DNA of 64,000 nt from Acidimicrobiia bacterium (GTDB lineage Bacteria > Actinomycetota > Acidimicrobiia > Spongiisociales > ZC4RG35): assembly GCA_035292685.1 (NCBI GenBank), contig DATDPP010000079.1, forward strand, positions 21,390-85,389, written 5' to 3'. The notes under the pieces were generated by a model that ran no database searches, had not been told where the DNA came from, and was given only the letters and a program-made list of their open reading frames with translations. How positions within the stretch are numbered: position 1 is the first letter of the stretch; the number at the start of each line of letters is the position of its first letter. The translations under genes were made by a program, and so were the position numbers. Positions 453 through 47,501 of the stretch are shown piece after piece.

Positions 453-1596
453 GCAAACGAGCGGCGTTGCCGCCGACGATCAACCTGTGTTGTTCGGTTG
501 TCAGATCGGCCCCGGCAAGGAAACCCAGCGGATCAGTTGGCCCCATGTCGAAGGGGTAGTCGGTGCCCATCAGAACGTGCTCGGCGCCGAATTCGCCGAC
601 CAGATACTCCACTGCCCCGGCGGAGAACACCGTGGTGTCGAAAAAGAGCTGGTGCAGGTATTCGCTGGGAGGGCGTGGAATGTGACGCCTCGTTTCGGGC
701 CTGACGTTGTAGGCGTGATCGGTCCGCGCGAAGTAGAACGGGAGATAGCCTCCGCCGTGGACCACCAGCATTCGCAGGCCGGGGAATCGCTCCCAGACCC
801 CGCCGAGGATCATCCGGGAGAGGGCCACGGTGGACGCCAGGGGCATGCAGACCACGTTGATGAGGTAGTAATCGTCCATTCTGCGGGGCTCGGTCCAACC
901 GTGCGGGTGGAGGATTACCAGCATCTCCAGGTCCTCGGCTTTGGCCCAAACCGGGTCGAACCGGCGATCGTCTAGATCCTGGCCATTCACGTCGGCGTTG
1001 ATCTCGAACCCGTTGAATCCGAGATCGCGGTTGACCCGGACCATCTCCGCCACCGCCGCCGCAGGATGGTTCATCGGCAGGTTGGCGATCCCGACGAATC
1101 GGCCTGGGCTGGCAGCGACCAACTCTGCGATCCCATCATTCTGCTGGGCCGCCACCTTGGGGCCCATGAGCTCATCGAGCCAGTAGAAGTACTGCGGGGG
1201 CGCTATCGAGAGCGCCTGAATGTCGATCCCTTGGAGGTCCATGTCGGCGACCCGGGCCTCGGGATCGATGAATTGCGCGGCTTGCGTTGCGCGTAACTCC
1301 CGGTTGTAGCGTGTGCTCTCTTCAGGCTGGACCACCATCCGGGGGTCGTACTCCGGTCGGAAATGAGGCGCGGCGACGGCAGCGGCATCCGGGACCTCCA
1401 CATGGCTGTGGATGTCGAAGGTGAGATAAGGCGGTTTGGGGGCGACGCTGGGCGCCCATTTCGGGCCTAGCTCCGGCCACCACTCCCCGCTCACAACGCC
1501 GCACCGGCAGGTTTCGCAGTTGGGGGCCGGTTTCGGATCTGGCTCACGCCCGTCAATATATTGTGCAACATCGCCCGACCACGCCGCATCCTCCAC
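442..1596 (-). CDS. Amidohydrolase_2 family protein (ACMSD/LigW/LigJ-type metal-dependent decarboxylase or hydratase)
   Basis: 'FDIHSHVEVP' HxH metal motif near the N-terminus, 'VVHGGGYLPFY' and 'GTDYPFDMG' near the C-terminus. About two-thirds identical by eye to 6153..7226 over the C-terminal 150 aa. The start is uncertain: GTG at 1596 puts motif-1 site A inside the ORF, and an alternative GTG lies at 1494. Confidence 0.85.
   Translation of the reverse strand: MEDAAWSGDVAQYIDGREPDPKPAPNCETCRCGVVSGEWWPELGPKWAPSVAPKPPYLTFDIHSHVEVPDAAAVAAPHFRPEYDPRMVVQPEESTRYNRELRATQAAQFIDPEARVADMDLQGIDIQALSIAPPQYFYWLDELMGPKVAAQQNDGIAELVAASPGRFVGIANLPMNHPAAAVAEMVRVNRDLGFNGFEINADVNGQDLDDRRFDPVWAKAEDLEMLVILHPHGWTEPRRMDDYYLINVVCMPLASTVALSRMILGGVWERFPGLRMLVVHGGGYLPFYFARTDHAYNVRPETRRHIPRPPSEYLHQLFFDTTVFSAGAVEYLVGEFGAEHVLMGTDYPFDMGPTDPLGFLAGADLTTEQHRLIVGGNAARLLRV
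1553..1571. promoter_or_regulatory. Motif-1 site A: TCAATATATTGTGCAACAT
   Basis: Shares the 12-mer ATATATTGTGCA with site B (14/19 overall). Lies at the divergent amidohydrolase/MFS junction. Confidence 0.5.
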
Positions 1597-1635
1597 CCCT
1601 TCGGCGTTGCCTCCTCCTCGACCGAGCGACTCTTG

Positions 1636-2802
1636 ATGGCGATCGCAGTCGGCGCCCTCGGCACCCTAGGCTTCTCGGTCACCGCGCCTCTCCTGCCCGA
1701 CCTGGCCGACGCGCTTGGTGTGAGCAGAGCGGCAATCGGCCTGGTCCAGGCGGCGATTTCGGTCCCCGGAGTCCTCCTCTCGATCCTGATCGGGTACTTC
1801 GCCGACCGTTTCGGAAGACGCAGAGTGGTATTGACCAGCCTGCTCATATTCGGAACATTCGGGATGGCCGGGTTTTGGGCCCGATCCCTCTGGCCCCTCG
1901 TTGTGACCCGCTTCATTCAGGGGGCCGGGACCTCAGGGATCCTGGGGCTGGGCATCGTTCTCGTCGGTGACATCTTCGAGGGGCGGGCCCGGACCAAGGC
2001 TATGGGATACAACCTGGGCGGAGTGACGGTGGTGAACATGATGGGCCCCATCGTGTCGGGGATGCTGGGGCAAGGCGGGGTGTTCCGACCATTCCTGATC
2101 TTCTCGGTCGGGTACCCATTGGCGTTGTGGGCTACCCGGATGCCGATCGAGCCAAGACGCGAGGTCGACTCCCCCTTGAGTCATGCCAGTGAGGCCTACG
2201 CCTCGCTGCGCATGGGTGGGCATCTTGTCGACTACACCGGGATCCTGATCGCAACCGTCGGAGTCACGGTCCTCATGCATGGACTGGGGTTTACGACGGT
2301 CCCCTTGTATCTCGACGGGGTCTTCGGCATCGCCTCGTTCGGTCGGGGATTCGTGATCGCCTTCTTCCAGGTCGGCGTTGTCATCGCCGCGGTCCAAATC
2401 GGGCGCCTGCAGGCCCGTCACGGAGGTTCACGGCTCGTGGGGACCGCCTTCACCCTCATGGGCCTGGGGATGGTGGTCACAGCTGTGGCCCCGGAATGGT
2501 GGGTGGTGCCTCTCGGGCTGGCCCTATCCGGTATCGGGTTCGGGCTCTTCGTCCCTCAGGCCCAGGAGAAGGCCGCCACCTTGAGTGATCCCTTGTATCG
2601 CGGATTGACCGTCCTCACCTGGGTCACCTTTGTCCGCTTCGCACAGGTCGTCGGTCCGCCGGCCGGGTCGTGGTCAGCCGAGAGTGTCGGCGCGAGGTTG
2701 ACGTTTGCCATCACAGGCGCAGTCATGTTGTTGGCTGCCGCCCTCTGGCAACCGATCCGGAATTACGCTTCGAGGAGGCAGGTCACAATCTCCCCCTCGT
2801 GA
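1636..2802 (+). CDS. MFS transporter
   Basis: Twelve-helix-like hydrophobic pattern with the MFS loop motif 'GYFADRFGRRRVV' between TM2 and TM3. ATG at 1636 precedes TM1; the ORF track start (TTG 1561) adds a non-hydrophobic Arg/Pro-rich extension. Confidence 0.8.
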   Translation: MAIAVGALGTLGFSVTAPLLPDLADALGVSRAAIGLVQAAISVPGVLLSILIGYFADRFGRRRVVLTSLLIFGTFGMAGFWARSLWPLVVTRFIQGAGTSGILGLGIVLVGDIFEGRARTKAMGYNLGGVTVVNMMGPIVSGMLGQGGVFRPFLIFSVGYPLALWATRMPIEPRREVDSPLSHASEAYASLRMGGHLVDYTGILIATVGVTVLMHGLGFTTVPLYLDGVFGIASFGRGFVIAFFQVGVVIAAVQIGRLQARHGGSRLVGTAFTLMGLGMVVTAVAPEWWVVPLGLALSGIGFGLFVPQAQEKAATLSDPLYRGLTVLTWVTFVRFAQVVGPPAGSWSAESVGARLTFAITGAVMLLAAALWQPIRNYASRRQVTISPS

Positions 2803-2805
2803 TAC

Positions 2806-2824
2806 AGGATGAACGATGCACGAT
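2806..2824. promoter_or_regulatory. Motif-1 site (weak): AGGATGAACGATGCACGAT
   Basis: 13/19 match to site C. Lies in the 35-bp gap upstream of the FAH-GntR operon, which fits autoregulation. Confidence 0.4.
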
Positions 2825-2837
2825 GTACCATCGCTTC

Positions 2838-3701
2838 ATGCGTCTGGCCACCTTTGAGTTGGACCAACAACGCCTGGTGGGCGCCATCGACGGGGATCAG
2901 ATGGTGGATTTTTCCGGCTCCGGGCTTCCCAACGAGATGATCGAGTTGATCAGGACCTGGGACCAGGATCGGGCTCGTTCCGCATACGCCACCTCCCCCA
3001 GGATCCCGCTGAGCCGGGTTCGTTTGCTGGCGCCCCTTGCCCCCCGGAAGAACATCATCGCCGTGGGCCGCAACTATCACGACCACGCTGAGGAATTCTC
3101 CGCTTCGGGTTTCGATGCCGCCGAGAAGCAGATGATCCCCGATCATCCGGTCTTCTTCACCAAGGCGCCGACCTCGGTCATCGGCCCCGAACAGGCGATC
3201 GTCCTGGACAACGATCCGACCGGGACTACCGACTACGAGGGGGAGATGGCGGTGGTCATCGGCCGAACCGCCCGCAATGTGACCCTAGGGACCGCTCTGG
3301 ATCATGTTTTCGGATGGACCATCGTGAACGATGTCACCGCACGTGACCTCCAGAAGAGACACGTTCAATGGTTCCTCGGCAAGAGCCCGGACACCTTCTG
3401 CCCGATGGGACCGGCGATCTCGACGATCGACGAGCTACCCGACATCGAATCGTCTTGGTTGAGGACGACGGTGAACAACGAGCTCCGACAGGAGACGCAG
3501 ATCAAGGAGCTCGTGTTCGATGTCCCGACCTTGCTCACCACCTTGAGCCAGGTGATGACACTGGAACCTGGAGATGTCATCGCCACCGGGACCGGAAAGG
3601 GAGTCGGGATCGGCTTCGACCCGCCCGTCTATCTCGTCCCCGGGGACGTCGTCGAGGTTTCCATCGATGGAATAGGCACCTTGCGCAACCCAGTCGTTTG
3701 A
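2838..3701 (+). CDS. Fumarylacetoacetate hydrolase (FAH) family protein
   Basis: 'MRLATF...' N-terminus, 'NIIAVGRNYHDHAEE', 'DYEGEMAVVIGR' and 'GDVIATGTGKGVG' are classic FAH-fold motifs. Start chosen at ATG 2838 because the ORF-track 2670 start overlaps the MFS gene. Confidence 0.85.
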   Translation: MRLATFELDQQRLVGAIDGDQMVDFSGSGLPNEMIELIRTWDQDRARSAYATSPRIPLSRVRLLAPLAPRKNIIAVGRNYHDHAEEFSASGFDAAEKQMIPDHPVFFTKAPTSVIGPEQAIVLDNDPTGTTDYEGEMAVVIGRTARNVTLGTALDHVFGWTIVNDVTARDLQKRHVQWFLGKSPDTFCPMGPAISTIDELPDIESSWLRTTVNNELRQETQIKELVFDVPTLLTTLSQVMTLEPGDVIATGTGKGVGIGFDPPVYLVPGDVVEVSIDGIGTLRNPVV

Positions 3702-3714
3702 CGAGGAAAGAGAC

Positions 3715-4389
3715 ATGACTGACAGCGACCCCATCACCTACGAGCCGGGAGAGCCGGTGCGGTTGGGCCCGATGACCCGACCCCGCACTGCGACCGACTT
3801 CGTGTCCGGTTCGATTCGCCGTTCGATCCTCAACGGGGAATTGGTTGGCGGCACACGGTTGAGTCTCGCCACCCTGGCGTCGGCATTCGACGTCAGCACG
3901 ACGCCGGTCCGTGAGGCGCTCCGAGAGCTGTCGTTCGAAGGGCTGGTGCGCCTCGACAGCTATCGAGGCGGCACGGTGAATGCAGTCACCAGGGCCGATG
4001 TCGAAGAGATCGTCCGGATCCGCCAGGTACTCGAGCCGATCGCAGTGAGGGAAGCGGTGGCGGCGATGACCTCCGGAGCCCTGGAAGCGGCGGAGAAGAT
4101 CCTCGAATACATGGAGCGCGACCCCATATGGGAGAACTGGGTCGAGGGGAACCGCTCTTTTCATCAGAAGCTGTACTCCGTTGCCCCCTCGAAGCGGCTG
4201 ACCGGGATGATCAAAGGTCTTCAGGACACCACCGTGGTGTTCATGAGCGCAACGGTCTCGAAGAGCGCGGCCTTGAGGTCGGAGGCTGCGAAGGACCATC
4301 GCGACATCCTGGAGGCGATGCGGGTCAGGGATGTCGACACCGCAATCGAGGTGACGCTTCGCCATCTGGCCATCCCGATCCGCCAATGA
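3715..4389 (+). CDS. GntR-family transcriptional regulator, FadR/FCD subfamily
   Basis: N-terminal winged HTH 'LATLASAFDVSTTPVREALRELSFEGLV' followed by a helical FCD-like C-terminal domain. Candidate binder of motif 1. Confidence 0.9.
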   Translation: MTDSDPITYEPGEPVRLGPMTRPRTATDFVSGSIRRSILNGELVGGTRLSLATLASAFDVSTTPVREALRELSFEGLVRLDSYRGGTVNAVTRADVEEIVRIRQVLEPIAVREAVAAMTSGALEAAEKILEYMERDPIWENWVEGNRSFHQKLYSVAPSKRLTGMIKGLQDTTVVFMSATVSKSAALRSEAAKDHRDILEAMRVRDVDTAIEVTLRHLAIPIRQ

Positions 4390-4393
4390 GCAG

Positions 4394-5263
4394 ATGACCG
4401 ACATACCCGTATGCCTGCCGCCGGTCCGCGACACCCGCCGGGCGAACCTCAGAGTGCCGGCCGGGGCAGTCGACTGCCACACCCACGTGTTCGCCCCGGG
4501 TTATCCGTTGTCTCCCAACCGGGGCTACACCCCTCCCGATTCGACACTCGACGACATGCTCCAGATGCACTCGATGCTTGGAATAGAGCGAGTGGTCTTC
4601 ACCCAGCCTTCGGTTTACGGCATCGACAATTCGGCCATTCTCGACGCGATGGCCCGGATCGCCCACCGCGCCCGAGCGGTGGTGGCAGTCGCCGCCTCGA
4701 TCAGCGACAGCGAGCTCTCGGATCTGGATGCCCTAGGGGCCCGAGGCATCCGGCTCAATCTCGACAACGTCGGTGGGATGCCGGTCGAACTCCGCGACCT
4801 GCCGGCTCTGGCCTCGCGGGTCGCGCAGTTCGGCTGGCATGTGGAGTTCCTCTTCGCCGGCCACGATCTACCCGAGCTAGCACCAATGCTTCGGGCCCTT
4901 ACCGCTCCGATCACGATCGGGCATTTCGGCTACATGCCGGCGGCGCAGGGAGTGAGCTACCCGCCGTTCCAAACCCTGCTCGCCCTGGTGGCGGAGGGCA
5001 ACACCTGGGTCAAGCTGTCCGGTCCCAATCGCCTCGGTGTCGGCGACCTACCGCCCTGGCCTGAGGTGATCCCATTGGCGAGCGCTTTGATCGAGGCCAA
5101 TCCGGACCGGATGTTGTGGGCCACCGACTGGCCGCATCCCAACAAGTACCGCGACCAGCCGAACGACGCCGATCTTCTCGAGCAGCTCGAGTTGTGGGCC
5201 CCCGATGAAGCGATGCGACATCGGATCCTCGTCGACAACCCGGCAACGCTCTACCGGTTCTGA
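4394..5263 (+). CDS. Amidohydrolase_2 family lactonase-like protein (LigI / 2-pyrone-4,6-dicarboxylate hydrolase-like)
   Basis: 'VDCHTHVF' near the N-terminus and 'LWATDWPHPN' near the C-terminus, in a ~290 aa protein. This pattern fits the lactonase branch of amidohydrolase_2. Confidence 0.75.
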   Translation: MTDIPVCLPPVRDTRRANLRVPAGAVDCHTHVFAPGYPLSPNRGYTPPDSTLDDMLQMHSMLGIERVVFTQPSVYGIDNSAILDAMARIAHRARAVVAVAASISDSELSDLDALGARGIRLNLDNVGGMPVELRDLPALASRVAQFGWHVEFLFAGHDLPELAPMLRALTAPITIGHFGYMPAAQGVSYPPFQTLLALVAEGNTWVKLSGPNRLGVGDLPPWPEVIPLASALIEANPDRMLWATDWPHPNKYRDQPNDADLLEQLELWAPDEAMRHRILVDNPATLYRF

Positions 5264-6156
5264 TGCCATCTCACCCGATTGCGGTGATCGGGCTCGGTCT
5301 CATGGGGTCGCGCATGTCTGCCCGACTGCTCGAAGCCGGCCACCCTCTGCGAGGGTACGACCCGGATCCCGACCGGTCGGCCGAGTTCGCTGGACTGGGC
5401 GGCGTCGCGGCTCGCTCGCCGGCCGAAGCGGTCCAGGGCTGCTGGGCTGCGCTTTTGTCACTCCCCAATTCCGACATCTCCCGCCAGGTCTGCCTTGGCG
5501 TCGATGGGATCCGCGAAAGCGGAACTTCGCTGTGGGTCTATGACGCCACCACGGGATGGCCTGAGGACGCGATCGAGATCGCCGCGGAGCTTTCGGAAGC
5601 CGACATCACCTATTCCGATGCGACGGTGAGTGGCAACGGGGAACTGGCCGAACGCGGTGAGCTCGTGGTCATGATGGGTGGAGCCCACGAGGCCTATGAG
5701 AAAGGGCGTCACATTTTCGAGGCCATCGGGCGCTCACATCATCATGTTGGCCCGGTCGGCTCCGGGTCAAGGATGAAGCTGATCGTGAACCACGTGCTGG
5801 CCATCCATCGCATGGCCCTGGCCGAGTCAATCGTGGTCGCCGAGCTGGCCGGAATGGACCTCGAGACCACATTGACCGTGTTGAAGGATGGGCTCGCCTA
5901 CTCGAGAGCAATGGACGCCTGGGGCGACAGGATGGTGGCTGCCGACCACGAACCGCCCTTTTCCCGGCTACGCCAGAGCCACAAAGACTCCCGGCTCATC
6001 GTCGATCACGGGCTCGGCCTTGGAGCCACCATGGACCTGGCGCTGGTGGTCAAGGCGGCACTATCGGAAGGGGAGGAAGTGGGTCTCGGCGACTTCGACA
6101 ATTCGGCGGTGGTCGAAGTGGTGCGGAGACGAGCCGGCATCGGTCGGCTGCCTTGA
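5263..6156 (+). CDS. HIBADH-type NAD(P)-dependent beta-hydroxyacid dehydrogenase
   Basis: N-terminal Rossmann motif 'IAVIGLGLMGSRM'. The C-terminal helical domain contains 'GSGSRMKLIVNHVLAIH'. Confidence 0.85.
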   Translation: MPSHPIAVIGLGLMGSRMSARLLEAGHPLRGYDPDPDRSAEFAGLGGVAARSPAEAVQGCWAALLSLPNSDISRQVCLGVDGIRESGTSLWVYDATTGWPEDAIEIAAELSEADITYSDATVSGNGELAERGELVVMMGGAHEAYEKGRHIFEAIGRSHHHVGPVGSGSRMKLIVNHVLAIHRMALAESIVVAELAGMDLETTLTVLKDGLAYSRAMDAWGDRMVAADHEPPFSRLRQSHKDSRLIVDHGLGLGATMDLALVVKAALSEGEEVGLGDFDNSAVVEVVRRRAGIGRLP

Positions 6157-7226
6157 CCGGTGACCGCCCTGAGGACTGGGAATCCGCCTGGGGCCCGAGT
6201 TCAGTCGCACGCCCGGTCACCCGAACGGTGGACGTGCACACCCATCTCATGGTGCCGGAGTCCGTCGAGCTCACCCGCGCCCACGCCAGGCCCGAGAACG
6301 ACCCGCGCACCTTGTTCTCCTCATCGCTGACCAACGACCTCAACCAGGAGTTCTATCGGTTGGCTCATGACAAGTATCACGACGCCGAGACCCGCATCAG
6401 GGACATGGATTCCATGGGTATCGACGTCCAACTCGTGGCCCTCACCCCCTTTCAGTACTTTTATTGGGTGGACGCAGACCTGGCGCTCCGGGTGACCTCA
6501 GCCCAGAATCAGCGCATCGCCGAGTTGGTCGATTCCCACCCGACCCGTTTCGTCGGTGTCGGGACCCTGCCGCTCGGTCACCCGGAGCAGGCCGTGGATG
6601 AGGCGGCACGAGTTGTCGACCTTGGGTTCCCCGCGGTTCAGATCGGAGCCGACGTCACGGGGACAGATCTCGACGATCCGCGATTCGACCCGGTTTGGGC
6701 AGCCATCGAGGAATTGGGCCTGGTGGTGATCCTCCACCCCGCTGGCTACACCGAAGCGAGACGCCTCACCGATTACTACCTGGTCAACGTGATCGGTATG
6801 CCCCTGGCAACCACGGTGGCGGTCTCACGAATGATTCTCGGCGGGGTGTTCCAGCGGTTCCCTCTCCTCAAGGTGCTCCTGGTCCACGGTGGCGGCTATC
6901 TGGCTTTCTACACGGCGCGCACCGACCACGCCTTCCGGCACCGGCCCGAGCTCCGGGCCCATATTGACCGTCTTCCATCGGAGTATTTGGCGAATCTCTA
7001 CTTCGACACCACCGTCTTCGATCCGGAGATGGTGCGGCATCTGGTGGCCCGTTACGGCGTCGAGCGGGTGCTTCTGGGAACCGACTACCCCTTTGACATG
7101 GGGCTCACCGACCCCCTCGCCCTGATTGCCGAAACCGGGCTCGACCGCAACGACCAGCAGTTGATCGCCGGGGTCAACGCCTCCCGCCTTTTCGGGATCG
7201 GCCGAAATCGGTTGCATTGGGGGTGA
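6153..7226 (+). CDS. Amidohydrolase_2 family protein (ACMSD/LigW/LigJ-type)
   Basis: 'VDVHTHLMVP', 'LLVHGGGYLAFY' and 'GTDYPFDMG'. The TTG start overlaps the upstream stop (TTGA). Confidence 0.85.
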   Translation: MTGDRPEDWESAWGPSSVARPVTRTVDVHTHLMVPESVELTRAHARPENDPRTLFSSSLTNDLNQEFYRLAHDKYHDAETRIRDMDSMGIDVQLVALTPFQYFYWVDADLALRVTSAQNQRIAELVDSHPTRFVGVGTLPLGHPEQAVDEAARVVDLGFPAVQIGADVTGTDLDDPRFDPVWAAIEELGLVVILHPAGYTEARRLTDYYLVNVIGMPLATTVAVSRMILGGVFQRFPLLKVLLVHGGGYLAFYTARTDHAFRHRPELRAHIDRLPSEYLANLYFDTTVFDPEMVRHLVARYGVERVLLGTDYPFDMGLTDPLALIAETGLDRNDQQLIAGVNASRLFGIGRNRLHWG

Positions 7227-7235: not shown

Positions 7236-7254
7236 ATCATATATTGTGCATGAT
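7236..7254. promoter_or_regulatory. Motif-1 site B: ATCATATATTGTGCATGAT
   Basis: Inverted ends ATCAT/ATGAT around a 9-bp AT-rich core; 15/19 match to site C. Lies in the 57-bp gap before the amidohydrolase at 7284. Confidence 0.6.
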
Positions 7255-7283: not shown

Positions 7284-8282
7284 ATGCGTCGGGTAATCGA
7301 CATCCACTGTCACCGCGAGTGCGGGACCGCCGCCGCAATGGTCAAGCCCGAGGCCGACCGGCTGGGTCGTGCACCCTTTCAGTTCGGTAGCGAGCTCACA
7401 AGGGAAGTCAACCGCCGACAATTGGCCGATCTGCGACCGAAGATGGAGTCACTCGAGGTCCGTCTTGCCGACATGGACGCCATGGGAGTCGACGTGCAGG
7501 CGATCAGCCTGGCCCCCTATCAGCTGTACCACTGGGCCGAGGGAGAACTGGGGGCAAATGCCTTCCGGGCGGTGAACGATGACCTGGCGAAGACGGTTGA
7601 CGCCTATCCCGAGCGCTTCATCGGGCTCGGCGCCGTGCCCCTGCAGGACACCGCCACCGCGGTGCACGAGCTCTGGAGATGTTCGGTGGAGCTGGGATTC
7701 CCCGGGATCGAAGTGCCGACCCACATCGAGGGCGAGGACCTCTCCAGCCCCCGTCTGGAACCCTTCTGGGAAGCAGTCGAGGAGCTCGGCATGGTCGTCT
7801 TCCTCCACCCGACCAACTTCACCCACCCTCAACGCTTCACCGACCATTACTTCCTCAACACCATCGGGCACCCACTGGAGGAGACCATCTGCGCTGGGCG
7901 TCTCATCTTCGACGGGGTAATCGAGCGTCATCCCGGCCTCAGGTTCGTGTTTGCCCACGGAGGCGGCTTCCTGCCTGCATACTCGGGGCGCTTCGACCAC
8001 GCCTACCACGCCCGAGAGGACGTACGAGATGGCCTGCCCCAACCGCCAAGCGAGTACTTGCGCACCTTCTTCTTCGATACGATGGTCTTCGAGCCCGACC
8101 AACTCGGGTACCTGATCTCAAAGTACGGCTCCGATCACATATTGCTGGGAACCGACTACCCCTATGACATGGGCGAGCCTGACCCAATGGGCCTGATCAA
8201 CAGGGTGAGCGGATTGTCGGAGGACGACGTCGAACGCATCGCCGGCGGCAACGCGGCACGCCTCCTGGGCCTCGACCTATGA
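7284..8282 (+). CDS. Amidohydrolase_2 family protein (ACMSD/LigW/LigJ-type)
   Basis: 'IDIHCHRE', 'FAHGGGFLPAY' and 'GTDYPYDMG'. Preceded by motif-1 site B. Confidence 0.85.
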   Translation: MRRVIDIHCHRECGTAAAMVKPEADRLGRAPFQFGSELTREVNRRQLADLRPKMESLEVRLADMDAMGVDVQAISLAPYQLYHWAEGELGANAFRAVNDDLAKTVDAYPERFIGLGAVPLQDTATAVHELWRCSVELGFPGIEVPTHIEGEDLSSPRLEPFWEAVEELGMVVFLHPTNFTHPQRFTDHYFLNTIGHPLEETICAGRLIFDGVIERHPGLRFVFAHGGGFLPAYSGRFDHAYHAREDVRDGLPQPPSEYLRTFFFDTMVFEPDQLGYLISKYGSDHILLGTDYPYDMGEPDPMGLINRVSGLSEDDVERIAGGNAARLLGLDL

Positions 8283-9391: not shown

Positions 9392-9408
9392 CCTCGAAAG
9401 GACTCAGC

Positions 9409-11641: not shown

Positions 11642-11643
11642 TC

Positions 11644-12804: not shown

Positions 12805-12853
12805 GGCCCCACCGCTGTGCCGACCCAAGGAGGCGGCGGCCTGAGTCCCGCCC

Positions 12854-13231
12854 TCAGTCGAGAAGCTCCACGGTCACGAAGCGGAGTGTGGTCACACCGA
12901 CGTTCTCCAGGTCGTGAACGAGGGCGGTGGTAGGAGTGTGCTCGAGATATTTGGTCTCACCCAATGAGTAATGACGGATCACGAAGGTCCCGTCGGCGAA
13001 GCGTTGCAGGCCCCGGCCCGCCTCCACCACGGTCCAGAAATAGTTGCTGGTGTGAGCGTGAAAGGGGCCTCTTTCGCCGGGCTGCAGCCTCACCTCCCAA
13101 ACCCGGATCCGGTCGTTCTCGAACCATATCGCGGTGCCGAGATCGTGGTTGCTCGATGCAGCTACCAACTCGCCCGAGAACTGCTCGCGGTCAAAGACTC
13201 CCTGTTCGACGATGTCCGGGTGACGTTCCAC
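12854..13231 (-). CDS. Small cupin-fold protein
   Basis: 125 aa with 'VWEVRLQPGERGPFHAHTSNYFWTVVEAG', a cupin motif 1-like stretch. Confidence 0.6.
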   Translation of the reverse strand: MERHPDIVEQGVFDREQFSGELVAASSNHDLGTAIWFENDRIRVWEVRLQPGERGPFHAHTSNYFWTVVEAGRGLQRFADGTFVIRHYSLGETKYLEHTPTTALVHDLENVGVTTLRFVTVELLD

Positions 13232-13232
13232 T

Positions 13233-14971: not shown

Positions 14972-14990
14972 ATCCTATATGATGCAGGAT
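14972..14990. promoter_or_regulatory. Motif-1 site C (reference): ATCCTATATGATGCAGGAT
   Basis: Inverted ends ATCCT/AGGAT separated by 9 bp. Lies between the divergent alpha/beta hydrolase (start 14968) and CMD gene (start 15015). Confidence 0.65.
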
Positions 14991-37603: not shown

Positions 37604-37622
37604 GTCAGATATCCCGCAGGAC
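37604..37622. promoter_or_regulatory. Motif-1 site (weak): GTCAGATATCCCGCAGGAC
   Basis: 12/19 match to site C, including GCAGGA. Lies in the divergent gap between the DMT gene (37603) and the amidohydrolase (37672). Confidence 0.35.
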
Positions 37623-40122: not shown

Positions 40123-42480
40123 CTATGTGGGGATCCTGGCACCCCGACCACTGATCGCGTTGAACACCCATTCGCTGCTGACCGGATGGTGATTGACCAC
40201 GATCCCGTACTGGCTCAAGGCGTGCTCGATGGCGGAGATGACGGCCGCGGCGGCGGGAAGGGTTCCCCCCTCCCCCGCCCCCTTGGCTCCGAGTGGATTG
40301 AACGGGGACGGGGTCTCCGTGTGGAGTTTGGTCAGGGGAGGCATATCAACTGCTGTCATCAACCGATAGTCCATGAATGAGGTGGTGAGCGGCTGACCGG
40401 ATTCGGTGAATACCACTTGCTCCAAAAGCGCATTGCCCAGACCGTGGGCCACTCCCCCATCGATCTGGCCGTCCACGATCATCGGGTTGAGGACCGTGCC
40501 ACAGTCATGGACCACGACATAATTGACGACCGTCACCTGACCGGTCTCCGGGTCCACCTCCACTTCGGCAATATGGGTGCCGTAGGCGTAGGCGGCCCCT
40601 TGGAATGGGAGCACTCGCTCGACCGACAGTCCGGGGCGCTCCTGATGGAGCAGCACAGTGGATCCGAGCTTCGGTTGAACACCGGATGCCAGATCACCGA
40701 GTGAGATCTCGGTTCCCGGCTGGCCAACCACCATCGCAGCACCACCGACCAGAACGATGTCCTCCGGTGACGCCTCCAGCTTCTGCGCCGCCAACTCCTT
40801 GATCAGGCCCGCGAGTTCAATCGCTGTGGTGTGGATTGCCGACGCCGCGGTCACCCCGGTGCGGCTGGCCACCGTCGCCATGCCGTGGGCGTAGCGCCCG
40901 GTGTCCCCACCCCGCACCCGGACCTTTCCGGGGTCGACCCCAAGGTGTTCGGCGCAGATCTGGGCAAAAACCGTGGCGTGGCCCTGGCCCTGGGAGCCCG
41001 CCCCGGTTTCGACCAGCACATCACCGTTGGTCAGAACCTCGATACGGGCCCCCTCGTATGGGCCCAGACCGGTGTCCTCGACATAGGAGGCGATTCCATA
41101 TCCCCGAAGTTTTCCCTGCTGTGCCGACCAGGCACGTCGCTCTTCGAACTCATCGACAGTGGCCGCCTCCAGCGCCATCTCCATAGCAGCGGGGTAGTCG
41201 CCCCCGTCATAAGTGGTAGGGCTCCCATCGGTGGCCGGGATATCTATCCGGTAGGGAAAGGCATCCGGTGGGATGAAGTTTCGCCGTCTCACCTCTGCCC
41301 GGTTCAGATCGAGCTCTCGGGCAATGGCGTCTATGAGTCGCTCGACCGCGAAAACCGCGTTAGGTCGCCCTGCGCCACGAATGGCGCCGGTTGGGGACGC
41401 ATTGGTGAATACCACATCGATCGATACCTCGAGTGCCGGGACCACGTAGGGCCCTGACATCAATCGGAGTGTGGTGAAAGGAACTGGGAGCCCATAGGCC
41501 ACAAAAGCACCGATGTCGTGGACTAGTCGGCCCCGGATCCCGAGGATCCTCCCCTCGGAATCCACCGCAGCCTCCACCCGACCACTCTGCCCCCGTTGCT
41601 GGTTGGTGGCCACGAAATGCTCGCGTCGGCGCTCAGTCCATTTCACGGGGCGGCGCAGCCGCGAGGCCAACGCCGCCACCACGTACTCCTCGGCGTAAAC
41701 CGTCGCTTTGGGCCCAAAACCACCACCGACGTCGGGGGCGATCACCCGCAACTCGTCCGGAGAGAGGCCGAGATACGAGGACACGAGAGTCCGCACGGCG
41801 TGTGGGGCCTGGCTGGACGACCACAGTGTCAGCCGACCCTCCACATCGTCCCAGCGACCGACAACGGCCCGACATTCCATCGAGGCCAGGGCCCCCCGAT
41901 GCTGGTCCACATCGATTGAGATCTGATGGTCAGCCTCTTGGAACGCCGCATCGAGATCCCCGTATCTGGCCGCGATGGTCGCCACCAGATTCGATTCGGA
42001 GCCGACATGAGCCGGAGGCGCGTCGTCGTCAAGCGCTCGTCGGTGGTCGATGACAACAGGGAGCACCTCGTAGTCGACCTCGACCTGACCGGCGGCGTCG
42101 ACGGCCTCGGCCTGGCTCTCGGCAACCACGACTGCGACGGGTTGGCCCACGAAACAGACCTCTCCCACGGCCAGCGGAGAGGCGCGGATCGGCTGGCGGA
42201 TGAGTGGAGACTGATTCTGCGCCGGCATCGGTGATTCGACCCCCAGGTCCGCGGCCGTGAAGAAGCCGATCAGCCCGGTGGTCCCCGCGGGGTCAAACGA
42301 AATGGAATCGATCAAGGCATGGGCTTCTGCGCTTCGGATGAACACCGCGTGGGCCATTCCCTCGAACTGGATGTCGTCGACGTAGCGCCCCTCCCCCCTC
42401 ACCAGACGAGGATCTTCGAGACGACGGAGCGGGCGGCCGATCAACGAACCAGCCCGCCCAACTCCTCGAGATACCGGCAC
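40123..42480 (-). CDS. Molybdopterin-binding large subunit of a xanthine-dehydrogenase/aldehyde-oxidase/CoxL-family hydroxylase
   Basis: 'RLEDPRLVRGEGRYVDD' N-terminus, 'GAIRGAGRP' active-site-loop type, 'GGGFG' and C-terminal 'AKGAGEGG'. The alternative TTG start at 42444 would give a TTGA overlap with the upstream stop. Confidence 0.9.
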   Translation of the reverse strand: MPVSRGVGRAGSLIGRPLRRLEDPRLVRGEGRYVDDIQFEGMAHAVFIRSAEAHALIDSISFDPAGTTGLIGFFTAADLGVESPMPAQNQSPLIRQPIRASPLAVGEVCFVGQPVAVVVAESQAEAVDAAGQVEVDYEVLPVVIDHRRALDDDAPPAHVGSESNLVATIAARYGDLDAAFQEADHQISIDVDQHRGALASMECRAVVGRWDDVEGRLTLWSSSQAPHAVRTLVSSYLGLSPDELRVIAPDVGGGFGPKATVYAEEYVVAALASRLRRPVKWTERRREHFVATNQQRGQSGRVEAAVDSEGRILGIRGRLVHDIGAFVAYGLPVPFTTLRLMSGPYVVPALEVSIDVVFTNASPTGAIRGAGRPNAVFAVERLIDAIARELDLNRAEVRRRNFIPPDAFPYRIDIPATDGSPTTYDGGDYPAAMEMALEAATVDEFEERRAWSAQQGKLRGYGIASYVEDTGLGPYEGARIEVLTNGDVLVETGAGSQGQGHATVFAQICAEHLGVDPGKVRVRGGDTGRYAHGMATVASRTGVTAASAIHTTAIELAGLIKELAAQKLEASPEDIVLVGGAAMVVGQPGTEISLGDLASGVQPKLGSTVLLHQERPGLSVERVLPFQGAAYAYGTHIAEVEVDPETGQVTVVNYVVVHDCGTVLNPMIVDGQIDGGVAHGLGNALLEQVVFTESGQPLTTSFMDYRLMTAVDMPPLTKLHTETPSPFNPLGAKGAGEGGTLPAAAAVISAIEHALSQYGIVVNHHPVSSEWVFNAISGRGARIPT

Positions 42481-43316
42481 AGGGCAGCGGCATCGAGGTC
42501 TCCCAGCCCGGCGTTACTCGACTCCATGTAGACGGGGATGGCCGCGTCGAGAAGTGGTGTTGGCGCACCGACCGACTCTGCGAAGTCCTTGATGATCCGT
42601 GCGTCTTTGAGGATGATGTCGAGGCGGGCCGCCGTTGGGTAATCGTCGTTCACCATCATTGGGCCTCGTATCTCGAAGATCTTCGAGGACCCGACCCCAT
42701 CGGTCATGACCTCCTGGACCAGGGCCGGGTCGAGCCCGGCAGCGATCCCGAGCGCATGAGCCTCGGCGGTCGCCAGGTTATGCACCGCCACCAGCAGGTT
42801 GGCAACGTACTTCATCCTCGACCCGTTGCCGAAGTCACCCAGGTAATGGGTCGATCGCCCGATGGCGTCCAACACGGGCCGCGCCCGCTCGAATCCCTCC
42901 GGACTGCCAGAGGCAAATACCACCAGAGTGGCGTCCGCCGCCTGAAGACCCGTCCCTGAGAGAGGCGTGTCCATCAACTCCACGCCCTTCGCCGCCAACG
43001 ACGACCTTGCGGCCGTCTTGGCGTCGAGGGGGAAGGTCCCCGTTTCCAGACAGAGCAGGCCGCTGTGGGCGTTGGCTGCCACTTCTGTGACCACAGCTGA
43101 AAGGGACGACGTAGTGGGCAGCGAGAAAACCACCACATCGGAGTCGGCCGCAACCTCACCCGCCGACGCCGACTCGACCCCACCTTTCGCAACCATTGCC
43201 GCGATCTTCTCAGGCGCGATGTCGAAGCCCTTCACCCGGTGACCCGCCCTCAGGAGGTTTCCGGCCATCGCCGAGCCCATCACCCCGAGACCGATCACAC
43301 CGACCCGATCACTCAT
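42441..43316 (-). CDS. HIBADH-type NAD(P)-dependent beta-hydroxyacid dehydrogenase
   Basis: 'VGVIGLGVMGSAM', 'LMDTPLSGTG' and 'GNGSRMKYVANLL'. Start taken at ATG 43316. Confidence 0.85.
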   Translation of the reverse strand: MSDRVGVIGLGVMGSAMAGNLLRAGHRVKGFDIAPEKIAAMVAKGGVESASAGEVAADSDVVVFSLPTTSSLSAVVTEVAANAHSGLLCLETGTFPLDAKTAARSSLAAKGVELMDTPLSGTGLQAADATLVVFASGSPEGFERARPVLDAIGRSTHYLGDFGNGSRMKYVANLLVAVHNLATAEAHALGIAAGLDPALVQEVMTDGVGSSKIFEIRGPMMVNDDYPTAARLDIILKDARIIKDFAESVGAPTPLLDAAIPVYMESSNAGLGDLDAAALCRYLEELGGLVR

Positions 43317-44949
43317 CGTCGCCTCCTCGGAGCGGCAGCGACGAAACCACCCCGGCATAGCCGTCGACAGCCACGATCTCGAGCCTATCCCCGGGAAGAT
43401 CGACGCCGCACACAGCCGGGACGCCGAGCGCCCTGGCCGAATCGAATAGATGCGCTGCTGGGCTCCCTGACGCAGTCACCAGCCCGGCAGCGTCCCAGAG
43501 CAGCGGCGCCAGGCCAGGCACTGGCTGTACCGCGGACGCCACCTGTCGGACGCGGAAGGACTCTGTCAAGCTTGAGTCGTCGATCGGACACCGTAGTCCG
43601 GCACCGACACCGGATGAGGCCGGGGTGCCACGATGATGACGCCCGTTCACCAGGACAACAGCAGCAACGAATGGCTCCCATTGGCCGATCCCGACCCTCG
43701 CTGCCATGACGCGGGTGGACCCGCCGAGCACCGAGTCCACGTCGCCTTTCGCCAGATACCAGGCTGATTCTGCGTCCGCCGCAGCGCCAAGTTCGACCAT
43801 CGTCGTTCGAACCATGCTCACCAAGGAAAGCAGACGCCCGCCAGCCATGGCATCCGGTGGGCGGAGGCGGCGAACCTGCGCGATCGCGCTCGCCGGATCT
43901 GGCCCCCGCAAAGCCCGGATGCATTTCCTGGCGGCCTCGATGGCCGATTCCGGAGGAAGCCCCCAGACCTCCCCTGCAAGTTGGGCGCAGAGCTCTGTCG
44001 CCTCACGCGAAGCCTCGGTCGGCGATCCGAAGTCCGTCGGCACCGGGTCGGGCAAGCCACCCAGGCCCCAGGGGAGGATCCAGGCCTCTCCCAACTGGCC
44101 GGGAGCCTGGACGACAGTCCGTGCCAGCCGAATCAGATGAGGGTCGTCGAGCTCACCCTCCATGACCCCCGCAAATGCGGGTTCGCCAGGTGGCGGAGCA
44201 CCCAGCTGTAGCAACCAGACCTCACCATCGACTGCCGCCCATTCGCTCTGAGTGACCCCCAAAAGCTCGCCGGCCGATCGCATGCTCCTCGCGATCGCGG
44301 TTAGCGTCTCGGCCCCCAACAGCTCTATAAGCTCATCCTCAACCCAGCCATCCTTCCAACGAGCCTGATGACCGGTCACCCAGCCCTGCAACAGTGGGGC
44401 CGGCGAGCCCTTGGTACCGATGATCGAGATGGCCCCATCCGCCTCAATCCGGGCGGTTCCCCCTGCCGAGGGTTGCAATGCAGGTTGGACGATCACAGAC
44501 ATCGCGACCGACCCCGGTTCAATGGATGCTCGCTCCAACCGCTCCAGCGTGGCCACCGCGAAGACCGAGGCCCAGCACCCGACCACGCCTCTGGTCAGAT
44601 CGTCAAGCCCGAGATCGAGATAGGAGGTGAAGGCCCCGGACCACTCGCCAGACGCCTCCAGGCTCGTAGACGATCGCGCCACCAGCATCGGTCCCAACGG
44701 AGACGCCCGAGTTTTCAACTCGGCGCCAAAGGACAAGGGCTCACCGGTGATCGCCAGACGAGCCCCACCCGAACCCCGTTGGGCGAGATTCTCTGCCCCC
44801 AACCTCATGTGCTCGCGCGACGCCCTGCCTTCGACCACGATCCCGGGGAGAATCGGGAGGCCCACCCTCCGGCCACGCGCCAGCCAGGCTGCCTTGGCAC
44901 CGACCCTTCCCGGGTCGAGGCTTCGATCCTCGTCGAGGTCGATGATCAC
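43309..44949 (-). CDS. PEP-synthase/PPDK-like phosphotransferase: ATP-grasp nucleotide-binding domain plus C-terminal phosphohistidine swivel domain, with no PEP/pyruvate TIM-barrel domain
   Basis: N-terminus 'GRVGAKAAWLARGRRVGLPILPGIVV' (PPDK_N-like) and 'MLVARSSTSLE'. C-terminus 'GLVTASGSPAAHLFDSARALGVPAVCGV' (mobile His domain). The protein ends about 30 aa later. Confidence 0.7.
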   Translation of the reverse strand: MIIDLDEDRSLDPGRVGAKAAWLARGRRVGLPILPGIVVEGRASREHMRLGAENLAQRGSGGARLAITGEPLSFGAELKTRASPLGPMLVARSSTSLEASGEWSGAFTSYLDLGLDDLTRGVVGCWASVFAVATLERLERASIEPGSVAMSVIVQPALQPSAGGTARIEADGAISIIGTKGSPAPLLQGWVTGHQARWKDGWVEDELIELLGAETLTAIARSMRSAGELLGVTQSEWAAVDGEVWLLQLGAPPPGEPAFAGVMEGELDDPHLIRLARTVVQAPGQLGEAWILPWGLGGLPDPVPTDFGSPTEASREATELCAQLAGEVWGLPPESAIEAARKCIRALRGPDPASAIAQVRRLRPPDAMAGGRLLSLVSMVRTTMVELGAAADAESAWYLAKGDVDSVLGGSTRVMAARVGIGQWEPFVAAVVLVNGRHHRGTPASSGVGAGLRCPIDDSSLTESFRVRQVASAVQPVPGLAPLLWDAAGLVTASGSPAAHLFDSARALGVPAVCGVDLPGDRLEIVAVDGYAGVVSSLPLRGGDDE

Positions 44950-44954
44950 CCCGG

Positions 44955-46193
44955 TCAGGTGGTCGAGATGATCTCGTGGGAGGCGTAGCTCGATACCAGC
45001 TCGATGCCGGTATCGGTCACGTAGAGCATCTCCTCCAGGCGAACACCGTGATCGTGGAGCTTGCCGTGTTGCGTCTCGAGAGCGAACGTCATCCCCGGCT
45101 GGATCTCGACCGGATGGTCCAAAGACCAGATCCGGGAAATGACCGGAGGATCGTATTGGGCGAGACCGAGACCGTGTCCCCAGAAGTTGGCTGCGGCCTG
45201 GTCCTCCTCCTCATATCCCCAGACCTCCTTGGCCGAAGGCCACTGCGAGGCAACATCTGCGGTGGTAACCCCGGGTTTGGTGGCCTCGATCGAATCCCAC
45301 AGCCATTTGTGGGCCAGGTCATAGGTCTGCTGATGTTCGTCGGTGGGTGTGCCACCCACGCAATAGGTGCGATAGACACACGACTTGAAGCCATTCCAGG
45401 TCAACGCAGCCAGGTCGACGATCACCAATTCGCCAGGCCTGATCATGCGATCGGAGAAGTTGCGCCAATTTGGCCAGGCGTTGGGGCCGGAGGAGACGAT
45501 GACGTCCTCGACGTCTTCCATGCCAGGGAGCGAATAGAGCTTCTCGAACCCAAAGGCAGCGACCTCGTTCTCGGTCAACCCGGGCTTTATGAAGTTGGTG
45601 ATCTCGTAATGGACGTAGTCGCAAATCGCCCCCACGATCGAGAACGCCTTGATCTCGTCTGGGCTCTTGATCGCCCGGGCCTCCATCATCGGGGTCATTC
45701 CATCGGTCCAGTTGATCCCGCGTGCCTCGAATTGGCGCACCAGGTTGATGTCGATGAAGTCGACGCCAAGCGGCTGGTCTTTGACTCCTGCCTCCTCCAG
45801 GTCGTTCATCAGGGCGTCGAGGAACTTGTTGACCTGCTGCTCGGCTGCGGGGCCGACCGCTCCCTTGATCCAGGAGTAGGAGTAGCGGATGTTCTCCTCG
45901 GGAATCCAAGGATTGTGGACTTTGAGATGAAAACCGATATCGCCCTGTTCGTACACGATGGGTGGCTTACCGGCGGTCAGCACCACGTAGCGAAGGCCCG
46001 GCTTCAACCGGTTCCAACCGGGCGTGAGGGTCGAGGACACGTAACGCATGTTCTCGTCGTAGAACAGGAGCAGCGCACCCAGACCGTGGCGCTCCATTGC
46101 CGCGTGAGCGCGTTTGAGCCTCCAATCCCGCACATTGGCCCAGTTGATGCCTTCCTTCCAGTCGGTGCTCAGACCGAAAAACGCTTCTCTCAT
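44955..46193 (-). CDS. M24-family (creatinase/prolidase pita-bread fold) protein with a variant metal site
   Basis: Creatinase_N-like N-domain; C-domain motifs 'VIVDLAALTWNGFKSCVYRT', 'WGHGLGL', 'FALETQ' and 'VRLEEML'. Confidence 0.8.
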   Translation of the reverse strand: MREAFFGLSTDWKEGINWANVRDWRLKRAHAAMERHGLGALLLFYDENMRYVSSTLTPGWNRLKPGLRYVVLTAGKPPIVYEQGDIGFHLKVHNPWIPEENIRYSYSWIKGAVGPAAEQQVNKFLDALMNDLEEAGVKDQPLGVDFIDINLVRQFEARGINWTDGMTPMMEARAIKSPDEIKAFSIVGAICDYVHYEITNFIKPGLTENEVAAFGFEKLYSLPGMEDVEDVIVSSGPNAWPNWRNFSDRMIRPGELVIVDLAALTWNGFKSCVYRTYCVGGTPTDEHQQTYDLAHKWLWDSIEATKPGVTTADVASQWPSAKEVWGYEEEDQAAANFWGHGLGLAQYDPPVISRIWSLDHPVEIQPGMTFALETQHGKLHDHGVRLEEMLYVTDTGIELVSSYASHEIISTT

Positions 46194-46218
46194 GGTGGTG
46201 CCGTCTCCCTCTTCTTCC

Positions 46219-47451
46219 TCAACCGACCCTATCCGGGATCACCTCGCGCACAATGTCGAGAAACTCGTCATCGTCGAGAAGGCCTTTCTTGGCGAGCGAC
46301 CGACCTTTGACCTCGGCGAGGATCGCCTCGATCTGCTTCGTCTCGGCGTCGAAGATGTCGTGTCTTCCAAGCCAGATCGCCACTGAGTCGAGACCGGATC
46401 CCTTTCCCAGGACGATCTTTGGCATGCTCTGGCCGACCAGCTCGGGACGATAGGGGAAGGGCTCGAGCAGGTCGTCGCCCACGTTCTTCACCCACGTGGC
46501 GATGATCCCCGACTCGACATTGAACAGCATGTCGCCGGTCACCGGTCGATTCGACGGCTGGGCTACGCCTGACAACTCCGCCACCAAACGAGCGATTTCG
46601 GTGAATTTCTCGGTCTTGACCCCCATGTCGATCCCGTACATCGTGAGCAAAGCGAGCACGGTCTCCTCGGTCGGTGCGTTCCCGGCGCGCTCCCCGATGC
46701 CACTGACCGTGGTGTGAATGACCGAAGCGCCTTCGGCCACGGCCAAGGCCGTGTTGGCCACGCCCATCCCGAAATCCATGTGGAAATGAGTCTCGAGCGG
46801 GACGTCGAGACGTTCCCGAACCCGCCGGGTGTAATAGCGGATCGCATGTGGAGAGGTGACCCCGAAGGTGTCGACGAGGGCGATGTTGTCGACATGACCG
46901 TTGGTGGCCACCGTCTCCAGGTCGTCGAGCAGCTCGGTCATCGTCGCCCGGGTGGCGTCGATGGGGAAGAATGTGACCTTGAGACCGTTCTCGTGGGCGT
47001 ACTTGGTGGCTTCGACGGATGCCTCGATCGCCCTCTCCACCGGCCACCGGTAGGCCTTCTCGATGAGATGATGGCTGGCAGGGACCTCCATGACCACACC
47101 TGTCACCCCACAGTCGAGTGCCAGCTCCACGTCGGGGACCATGCATCGACTGAAGGCATAGATCTCGGTCGGGAGCTCCGCGGCGACCATGCGCTCGATG
47201 GCCTGTTTGTCCGACGGTGAGACTGCGGGGAGCCCGGCCTCGATCCGGTGGATCCCGGCCTCAGCCAGGGCCTCGGCAAGCCTGACTTTCTCGTCGGCGG
47301 TGAACTCGACCCCTGCCTGCTGCTCACCGTCACGCAGGGTCACGTCATGGACCTTCACCTCGGACGGTATCTGGAATTCCCCGGTCACCTCAGGCAGATA
47401 GTTCCAAGGGCTCGAAAACCATTGGTCCGTCTTCCATGGCTCCTGACCCAT
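46219..47451 (-). CDS. HMGL-like / pyruvate carboxyltransferase-domain protein (homocitrate/isopropylmalate/citramalate synthase-type aldolase family)
   Basis: 'VHDVTLRDGEQQAGVEF', 'HFHMDFGMGVANTLAAV'-type HxH metal motif (here 'THFHMDFGMGVANTALAV') and 'GIGERAGNAPTEE'. Confidence 0.85.
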   Translation of the reverse strand: MGQEPWKTDQWFSSPWNYLPEVTGEFQIPSEVKVHDVTLRDGEQQAGVEFTADEKVRLAEALAEAGIHRIEAGLPAVSPSDKQAIERMVAAELPTEIYAFSRCMVPDVELALDCGVTGVVMEVPASHHLIEKAYRWPVERAIEASVEATKYAHENGLKVTFFPIDATRATMTELLDDLETVATNGHVDNIALVDTFGVTSPHAIRYYTRRVRERLDVPLETHFHMDFGMGVANTALAVAEGASVIHTTVSGIGERAGNAPTEETVLALLTMYGIDMGVKTEKFTEIARLVAELSGVAQPSNRPVTGDMLFNVESGIIATWVKNVGDDLLEPFPYRPELVGQSMPKIVLGKGSGLDSVAIWLGRHDIFDAETKQIEAILAEVKGRSLAKKGLLDDDEFLDIVREVIPDRVG

Positions 47452-47475
47452 CTACGCTCCTTTACCATCGTCCGA

Positions 47476-47501
47476 CAGGATGATCCTGCATCATATACGA
47501 T
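47476..47501. promoter_or_regulatory. Motif-1 site E (reverse orientation; rc of 47483..47501 = ATCGTATATGATGCAGGAT) plus an overlapping perfect palindrome CAGGATGATCCTG (47476..47488)
   Basis: 18/19 identical to site C. Lies in the 90-bp divergent gap between the HMGL-like operon (start 47451) and the DctP-like operon (start 47542). Confidence 0.65.

Follow-up and report, generated by a model that had tools for sequence, protein, structure and literature searches.

A candidate operator overlapping core promoters in the catabolic gene island of an uncultured Acidimicrobiia bacterium

Which factor, if any, could coordinate the expression of a catabolic gene island whose promoters carry nearly the same AT-rich 19-mer is the question raised by a 64-kb stretch of DNA (the window) from an uncultured Acidimicrobiia bacterium (Actinomycetota). 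An initial annotation had noticed this motif at seven promoter regions of the window and proposed it as the operator of a regulon. To our knowledge, soils, aquifers and oceans hold Acidimicrobiia in abundance, but almost none are in culture, and next to nothing has been described of how they regulate their genes. The comparative analysis reported here indicates that the motif is very probably a regulon operator that overlaps core promoters and, with moderate confidence, that this operator controls the island and is bound by a clade of FCD-type GntR regulators.

The window has a G+C content of 63%, its intergenic DNA totals only ~3.5 kb, and DNA of the source bacterium recurs across many aquifer and soil metagenome assemblies; a search of PLSDB for a plasmid origin gave no match. 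Pfam annotation of its ~60 genes revealed six Amidohydro_2 paralogues, several Gfo/Idh/MocA and 3-hydroxyisobutyrate-dehydrogenase-like enzymes, two FAH-family hydrolases, one allantoinase/hydantoinase-like Amidohydro_1, one HMGL-like enzyme, M24 peptidases, a Mo-hydroxylase, a CoA transferase, a hydratase and MFS, TRAP and ABC transporters, together with one LacI regulator and three GntR/FCD regulators, named a, b and c.

Occurrence and conservation of the motif

All seven strings quoted by the initial annotation were present in the window at the positions given for them, and four solid sites (14972, 47483, 7236 and 16895, named by their first position) share the consensus (G)ATCcTATATnaTGCAnGAT(C). 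The pattern ATCNTATATNNTGCANGAT had three exact matches in the window (7236 and 14972 on the plus strand, 47483 on the minus strand), and the pattern TATATNNTGCA with up to one mismatch had seven, against 1.4 expected. One 18/19 match in 64 kb is only borderline, with ~0.9 such pairs expected by our own estimate for sequence of uniform composition; since a single match of this kind is not significant alone, the case rests on comparative data.

The comparison set comprised 80 loci from 80 other species (GTDB representatives, mostly Acidimicrobiia metagenome-assembled genomes, or MAGs; L011-L090; 1.2 Mb), each chosen by its Amidohydro_1 orthologue (55-77% identity) and taken with at most 10 kb of sequence to either side. 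A second set (L091-L094) was reached through homologues of regulator a; same-species contigs (L001-L010) were set aside for their lack of diversity, and L095 and L096 are the source-contig DNA to the left and right of the window, 16 kb in total. A matrix made from the five better sites of the window found 60 matches at or above 20 bits in the 80 species, 35 of them reaching 24 bits, against 0.15 and 0 in first-order shuffles, and 100 column-permuted matrices of identical composition gave 0.06 matches versus the 60 real ones. The window sites were rescored with a matrix built from the sites of other species only, for which the maximum in shuffled windows was typically ~8 bits (Table 1). When 81 sites were aligned with 40-nt flanks, the information was limited to positions 0-20, with the consensus G-ATCcTATATnaTGCAnGAT-c, ~16-20 conserved positions and roughly 27 bits. 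The dyad arms (G)ATCnT and AnGAT(C) are centred at position 10, and 14 of the 19 positions of site 14972 are self-complementary.

The regulon proposal was supported by orthologous gaps, in which the motif was kept before CMD (8/8 orthologues), Amidohydro_2_d (7/7, plus 4/4 in the second set), HMGL (5/5) and Gfo_c (15/17), and likewise before M24_b (4/5) and the abhydrolase (5/7). Neighbouring genes were assigned by start-codon-based flank analysis, and the site was sought within 250 nt upstream of each orthologue. The DctP arm was less conserved (one of six orthologues), no site preceded the orthologues of internal operon genes, and none was found before the 5-15 orthologues each of EamA, Amidohydro_2_e, MFS_c and GntR_b. 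The flanks of the sites had diverged, and the motif was kept before the same orthologous genes in species with 55-85% protein identity, nearly every match of at least 20 bits standing 0-60 nt upstream of these genes. For example, the exact 19-mers ATCCTATATGATGCAGGAT and ATCGTATATGATGCAGGAT also precede CMD and HMGL orthologues in further species. An interspersed repeat or duplicated promoter was considered and rejected, given that the flanks carry no information and that 89 of 92 sites lie beside gene starts.

Moreover, the 46 loci with cluster synteny held 87 sites. No site was found in the 34 loci without it (470 kb, ~426 open reading frames) or in the 16 kb of source-contig DNA around the window, which carries cobalamin genes, HtrA, a two-component system and SufB. 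The motif thus tracks the gene cluster and is absent from loci lacking it and from neighbouring housekeeping genes, which speaks against the reservation that it might be a generic element. Apart from FCD-GntR proteins, the genes flanking the sites encode enzymes and transporters and no regulators. Rfam covariance models at gathering score gave no match across the whole window, and a literature search with the motif strings and for GntR regulons of Acidimicrobiia found no relevant description.

Candidate regulators and promoter anatomy

In the preferred reading, the pseudo-palindrome (G)ATCnTATATnnTGCAnGAT(C), of 19-20 bp, would be the operator of a transcription factor for the catabolic island and would lie directly over core promoters, with TATnnT (positions 7-12) as the rightward –10 and TAnGAT (positions 6-1) as the leftward –10 wherever a leftward promoter exists. 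As the operator covers both –10 boxes, repression by occlusion is suggested: a bound dimer would block RNA polymerase both ways, and a metabolite of the pathway would release it. Regulator b would be the binder candidate conserved across species, and a and c, which have the same helix, may share or partition the sites. The binding protein, the repression and the transcription start sites are all inferred here from sequence comparison.

When aligned, all three paralogues had the recognition helix VSTTPVREA(L/M)R(D/E)L. Orthologues of b also having it were found in ~21 of the 80 loci, including those of Nocardioides caldifontis and a Micromonospora MAG, where an asparaginase-GntR operon lies divergently to Amidohydro_1 behind the variant site ATCCTATAAAATGCACGAT. 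In fact, b-type GntR genes often lie in site-headed operons (L019, L084, L088, L028, L053 and L036, as the distal gene; L083, Nocardioides; L090, Micromonospora), and in L051, L058 and L065 the gene stands directly behind the variant site GGTTATAGGATGCACGAA. Similarly, regulator a is placed between a variant and a consensus site in five species, with synteny conserved in L091-L094. No regulator family other than the FCD-GntR proteins with the helix VSTTPVREALR recurred in these loci, and a site was present in 19 of 22 loci with a VSTTP-helix GntR (one a-orthologue among the 22) versus 27 of 58 others (Fisher p=0.002). This co-localisation points to the FCD-type GntR clade with the helix VSTTPVREALR as the probable binder.

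Several observations weigh against this assignment. Since the cluster is conserved as a whole, the co-occurrence of GntR genes and sites is confounded. Upstream of the b gene in the window there is a half-site at most; none of 15 b orthologues (at least 50% identity) has a site of at least 16 bits within 250 nt upstream, and the immediate neighbours of b (EamA, Amidohydro_2_e and MFS_c) have no site. The motif lacks the TKGT-N2-3-ACMA core of most FadR-subfamily regulators (compared with PMC4494728). Furthermore, its half-sites, (G)ATCnTATAT and (G)ATCnTGCAT, strictly keep a TATA/TGCA asymmetry that is unusual for a symmetric dimer and is explained only by the embedded –10.

The misfit with the FadR-subfamily consensus and the missing full site at the promoter of b would also suit an operator bound by some other regulator encoded outside the cluster, such as a global catabolic regulator of another family, the FCD-GntR proteins being merely co-inherited and having operators of their own. 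Two further findings lean the same way, namely that the gaps beside b and c bear other conserved boxes and that no GntR gene appears in the examined sequence of many loci that do have sites. This explanation deserves to be taken seriously but appears unlikely, as no other regulator family recurs beside the sites, GntR genes are repeatedly distal in site-headed operons, regulator a keeps its place between two sites, and the motif and b-type GntR stay linked even in Nocardioides and Micromonospora despite the changed gene context. In addition, the residues Arg35 and Arg45 of FadR, which contact the GT/AC core, align with Ala and Thr in BLASTP against E. coli FadR (its sequence entered by hand), and a non-canonical GntR site is therefore plausible.

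The nearest NCBIfam model for the regulators was phnR_burk, far under its cut-off, and the nearest solved structure was the uncharacterised 3c7j; no characterised close homologue was found in NCBIfam or the PDB. The ARG box and LysR T-N11-A, NrdR, NsrR, CRP and LacI-type operators were set aside on an informal comparison, in which the spacing of the half-sites or their sequence did not fit, and also because no such regulator recurs in these loci.

Regarding promoter anatomy, gene starts were found no further than 200 nt from 89 of 92 sites, in the typical case at 17-31 nt on the right side and at 6-34 nt on the left. A rightward gene (on the ...GAT side) mostly begins at 17-31 nt and has a Shine-Dalgarno sequence between it and the motif. 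Actinobacterial –10 elements read TANNNT and, in the Streptomyces type, TAGGAT. The motif contains two back-to-back –10-like hexamers, T7A8T9nnT12 pointing rightward and TAnGAT, often TAGGAT, pointing leftward, and the conservation profile of the former is the same as that of the actinobacterial –10. The possibility raised earlier that the TATAT core is a –10 element is therefore supported, with hexamers at fitting distance from start codons. A leaderless geometry (–10, 6-9 nt, start codon) was kept before the abhydrolase in six species, its start codon lying 6-9 nt beyond motif position 1, and before FAH in four, where TACCAT precedes the ATG at this distance; several leftward genes look leaderless. 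In L028, the Amidohydro_1 ATG directly follows the motif with no evident Shine-Dalgarno sequence, as would be expected if a rightward start lay near position 20. No –35 conservation was seen across the 81 aligned sites, and a scan for E. coli-type sigma-70 promoters (TTGACA + TATAAT, 16-18 nt spacing) found none at any site. Taken together, these features are sequence-level evidence for a –10-only, leaderless promoter architecture in Acidimicrobiia.

The same features could be read as a bidirectional core-promoter cassette of two –10 hexamers and an initiation region, shared by many genes and recognised by a housekeeping or alternative sigma factor with no dedicated regulator; the fit of both hexamers, the fixed distance to the start codons, the apparent leaderless starts and the lack of a –35 all agree with it. 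This is nonetheless quite improbable, because the ~27 bits of conservation far exceed a –10, the TGCAnGAT half has no promoter role, and other promoters of the island lack the motif, EamA/Amidohydro_2_e having its own TATGGT box. Moreover, when sites were picked by the core TATATnnTG[CT]A alone (52 matches against ~3 expected from composition, own estimate), the unselected ATC arm was found in 22 of 24 sites without a leftward gene and in 18-19 of 20 with one, and the unselected GAT arm in 16-18 of 20-24. Arms conserved where no leftward gene exists, and the absence of the motif from non-cluster loci and housekeeping neighbours, argue for an operator rather than a generic promoter element.

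Lastly, a recurrence due to chance, to AT-rich intergenic DNA or to leftover paralogous promoter duplication, to which the borderline 18/19 match, the paralogy of the amidohydrolases and the 81% likeness of the CMD and HMGL leaders over 37 nt (14972-15008 versus 47465-47501) had lent some colour, is refuted by the permuted matrices, by the dissimilar flanks, by the orthologous placement of the sites and by the 37-nt likeness being specific to this species and not seen in others.

A bolder and only tentative proposal is that one 20-bp cassette combines a –35-less bidirectional promoter with the shared operator of three FCD-GntR sensors that depart from the GT/AC rule, several of its mRNAs being leaderless. 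If true, different metabolites would be integrated on one operator family over a ~30-gene island, in a design conserved from Acidimicrobiia to Nocardioides and Micromonospora. Positions 10-11 of the motif vary without pattern, and the paralogues a, b and c were not separable by site sub-types. The arms read GATC in the consensus, with G at position 0 in 57 of 81 sites and C at position 20 in 40 of 81 (e.g. 47482-47502 in the window); that this might make binding sensitive to methylation is only remotely conceivable.

Individual sites, transcription units and other boxes

The putative regulon would comprise about nine or ten transcription units with ~30 genes (Table 1). Each promoter keeps its own variant of the motif across species.

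Table 1. Motif sites, putative transcription units and candidate regulators of the window (bit scores from the matrix of other species' sites)
Feature	Position	Strand	Context
Consensus site (putative operator) ATCCTATATGATGCAGGAT	14972..14990	+	Divergent gap abhydrolase (-)/CMD (+); 33.1 bits
Consensus site (putative operator) ATCGTATATGATGCAGGAT	47483..47501	-	Divergent gap HMGL-like (-)/DctP (+); 31.9 bits
Consensus site (putative operator) ATCATATATTGTGCATGAT	7236..7254	+	29 nt before Amidohydro_2 gene 7284, without divergent gene; 31.8 bits
Variant site (putative operator) ATCCTATATGTTGTTTGGA	16895..16913	-	Divergent gap Amidohydro_1 (-)/Gfo (+); 20.9 bits
Weak variant TCAATATATTGTGCAACAT	1553..1571	+	Gap Amidohydro_2 (-, true start GTG 1494)/MFS (+, ATG 1636); 11.1 bits
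Composite variant	2809..2831	-	Before apparently leaderless FAH-GntR operon; best 19-mer ATGGTACATCGTGCATCGT (2813-2831), 11.9 bits
Rejected site GTCAGATATCCCGCAGGAC	37604..37622	+	<7 bits; not a member of the regulon
Putative operon FAH-GntR_a-Amidohydro_2-3-hydroxyisobutyrate dehydrogenase-like-Amidohydro_2	2838..7226	+	Behind variant site 2813
Putative regulated operon Amidohydro_2-Gfo-Gfo	7284..10479	+	Site 7236 directly upstream
Putative regulated operon abhydrolase-2-hydroxyacid dehydrogenase-cupin-CinA-MFS	10469..14965	-	Site 14972; apparently leaderless start
CMD-family gene	15030..15527	+	Right of site 14972
Amidohydro_1 (allantoinase/hydantoinase-like)	15548..16876	-	Right of site 16895; start confirmed by P0001, 442 amino acids
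Putative regulated operon Gfo-enoyl-CoA hydratase-CoA transferase	16932..20010	+	Site in 15/17 Gfo_c orthologues
Putative regulated operon HMGL-like-M24-PEP-utiliser-3-hydroxyisobutyrate dehydrogenase-like-Mo-hydroxylase	40123..47451	-	Site 47483
Putative regulated operon DctP-SDR-cupin-Ldh_2	47542..50650	+	Site 47483
GntR/FCD regulator a	3715..4389	+	Pfam; in FAH operon between variant site 2813 and consensus site 7236
GntR/FCD regulator b, helix VSTTPVREALRDLA	35924..36613	+	Pfam GntR+FCD; most widely conserved candidate binder
GntR/FCD regulator c, helix VSTTPVREAMRDLA	54657..55331	-	Pfam; flanking gaps bear a different box family

Of the seven sites first proposed, the four solid ones were upheld, 1553 and the FAH element were retained as conserved variants, and 37604 was discarded. 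Five sites had been placed in divergent gaps; four of the six retained do lie there (1553, 14972, 16895 and 47483), and 7236 and 2813 stand between same-strand genes.

At site 14972, a minus-strand TAGGAT precedes the GTG at 14965 of the putatively leaderless abhydrolase gene by 6 nt, and TATGAT points rightward to CMD. The 19-mer of site 47483 was identical before the HMGL orthologue in L021; the extra palindrome CAGGATGATCCTG reported at 47476-47488 is present but is not conserved in other species. The counterparts of site 7236 scored 25-31 bits in all seven orthologues of L011-L090 and all four of L091-L094.

In the gap of site 16895, ~15 species retained the variant ATCCTATATGTTGTCTGAT ~8 nt before the ribosome-binding site, and in ~20 of the 80 loci the same 19-mer stood at the same place of Amidohydro_1, ~8 nt before the ribosome-binding site, with the rest of the gap diverged; the variant kept before Amidohydro_1 ends in ...GTTGTCTGAT. 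NCBIfam matches of Amidohydro_1 were all under the cut-offs. In a distant group (L066, L072, L078, L082, L086 and L089), the Amidohydro_1 promoter has a different conserved box, CGTACATAAAATACAAC, which resembles the left half-site variant ATCGTACAT of L039 and L055.

Site 1553 has a preserved core and degenerate arms, and its box (CAATATATTGTGYAMCATCGCC) was conserved in L091, L092 and L093 and absent in L094. The weak copy upstream of the FAH-GntR operon proved to be a conserved element, found in four orthologous gaps at 12.4-18.7 bits, in the minus-strand register ATGGTACATCGTGCATSAT; in the window this register is 2813-2831, 7 nt off the 2806-2824 first given. The suggested autoregulation of this operon by regulator a fits a conserved variant site that would overlap a leaderless promoter. 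On the plus strand, the element reads as the heptads GATGAAC GATGCAC GATGTAC followed by the –10 TACCAT (2826-2831), 6 nt before the ATG at 2838. The heptads are GATGCAT GATGCAC GATGTAC in L091 and similar in L093, and they form direct repeats, unlike the inverted half-sites of the other sites.

Membership of site 37604 in the regulon was not sustained: none of 10-13 orthologues of the EamA and Amidohydro_2 genes has a site, and eight orthologous EamA/Amidohydro_2 gaps did not conserve it, keeping instead the –10-like box GTTATGGTGC. A site missing from the original list was found at 62035-62053, with 16.7 bits in the matrix from other species.

A second box family, TATRYAnnnTACCGRAWA, has three plus-strand copies, at 53827-53847, 55414-55434 and 62044-62064 (TATACATTCTACCGGAAAGAC, TATGTACTATACCGAATATAG and TATGTAGAATACCGAATAGAC), 22-60 nt before the plus-strand HpcH, M24_b and beta-eliminating lyase genes around regulator c. 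Possibly these boxes are an operator or promoter type of their own; M24_b and HpcH promoters of other species bear the main motif in their place. For M24_b, the sequence before the called ATG at 55572 (window 55488-55572) encodes a conserved N-terminus (RYAKGPFGVDWEDRYDF) in the same frame, and the ATG of the orthologues aligns with ATA 55494-55496, right after TGA 55488 and 6 nt after GAGGGAG, which suggests a non-canonical or damaged start codon.

The box ACAAACGATTGCTACAGTCGATTGCGG at 23220-23246, with CGATTGC repeated, stands between the LacI gene and a Liv-type ABC binding-protein gene and is likely a LacI operator unrelated to the main motif. Divergent from regulator b lies a Zn-dependent alcohol dehydrogenase-like gene (34847-35848, minus strand; …GICGTDVKILAGKIPVDYPRIMGHEMVGEIV…), and this pairing is conserved in L051, L058 and L065. 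To the left of the window, a 35-nt box, GATCATATATCAGACAATCCATAsTTTGCACTGT, occurs twice in L095 (~1175-1210 and ~5035-5070, i.e. ~5.1 and 1.2 kb outside the left end of the window) before ABC-transporter genes, with the left half-site of the main motif and a different right half. On the other side, SufB carries an intein with a LAGLIDADG homing-endonuclease domain by Pfam (L096, 18796-21363, ~7-9.5 kb right of the window end).

Comparison with known systems

This well-supported putative operator, with ~90 instances, provides a handle to delimit a conserved catabolic regulon. Together with its candidate regulator it forms a testable pair that would break with the rule of the GntR family, and carriers that can be cultured (Nocardioides caldifontis, Micromonospora) would open it to experiments.

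Two known kinds of elements invite comparison. A generic –10 conserves ~3 positions and occurs at all promoters. With the –10-only and leaderless promoters of actinobacteria, the motif shares TATnnT, TAnGAT, the lack of a –35 and, for several genes, the distance of 6-9 nt to the start codon; unlike a generic –10, it has ~16 conserved positions and dyad arms and is confined to one gene island.

The operators of FadR, DgoR, LldR and PdhR are, like the motif, dimer-sized A/T-rich dyads of 17-20 bp over the –10 or the start of catabolic operons, often in divergent gaps and before the operon of the regulator itself. The own site of E. coli FadR, ATCTGGTACGACCAGAT, has ATC...GAT ends. The regulators of the window also resemble the FadR type in having an N-terminal winged helix and a C-terminal FCD ligand domain by Pfam. 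The motif differs from the FadR type in its asymmetric TATA/TGCA half-sites and in its core, since most FadR-subfamily regulators recognise TKGT-N2-3-ACMA, with exceptions such as BioR (TTATMKATAA) and NanR (direct repeats of TGGTATAW) (PMC4494728). These two provide precedents for FCD-type GntR proteins acting on A/T-rich sites outside the family consensus (PMC4494728), and the direct heptad repeats before FAH recall repeat-type sites such as those of NanR; the BioR and NanR sequences differ from the motif, and no evidence of orthology was found. By analogy, the system would work like the classic FadR-subfamily repressors, although one sequence feature that defines their operators is missing from it, as it is from BioR and NanR.

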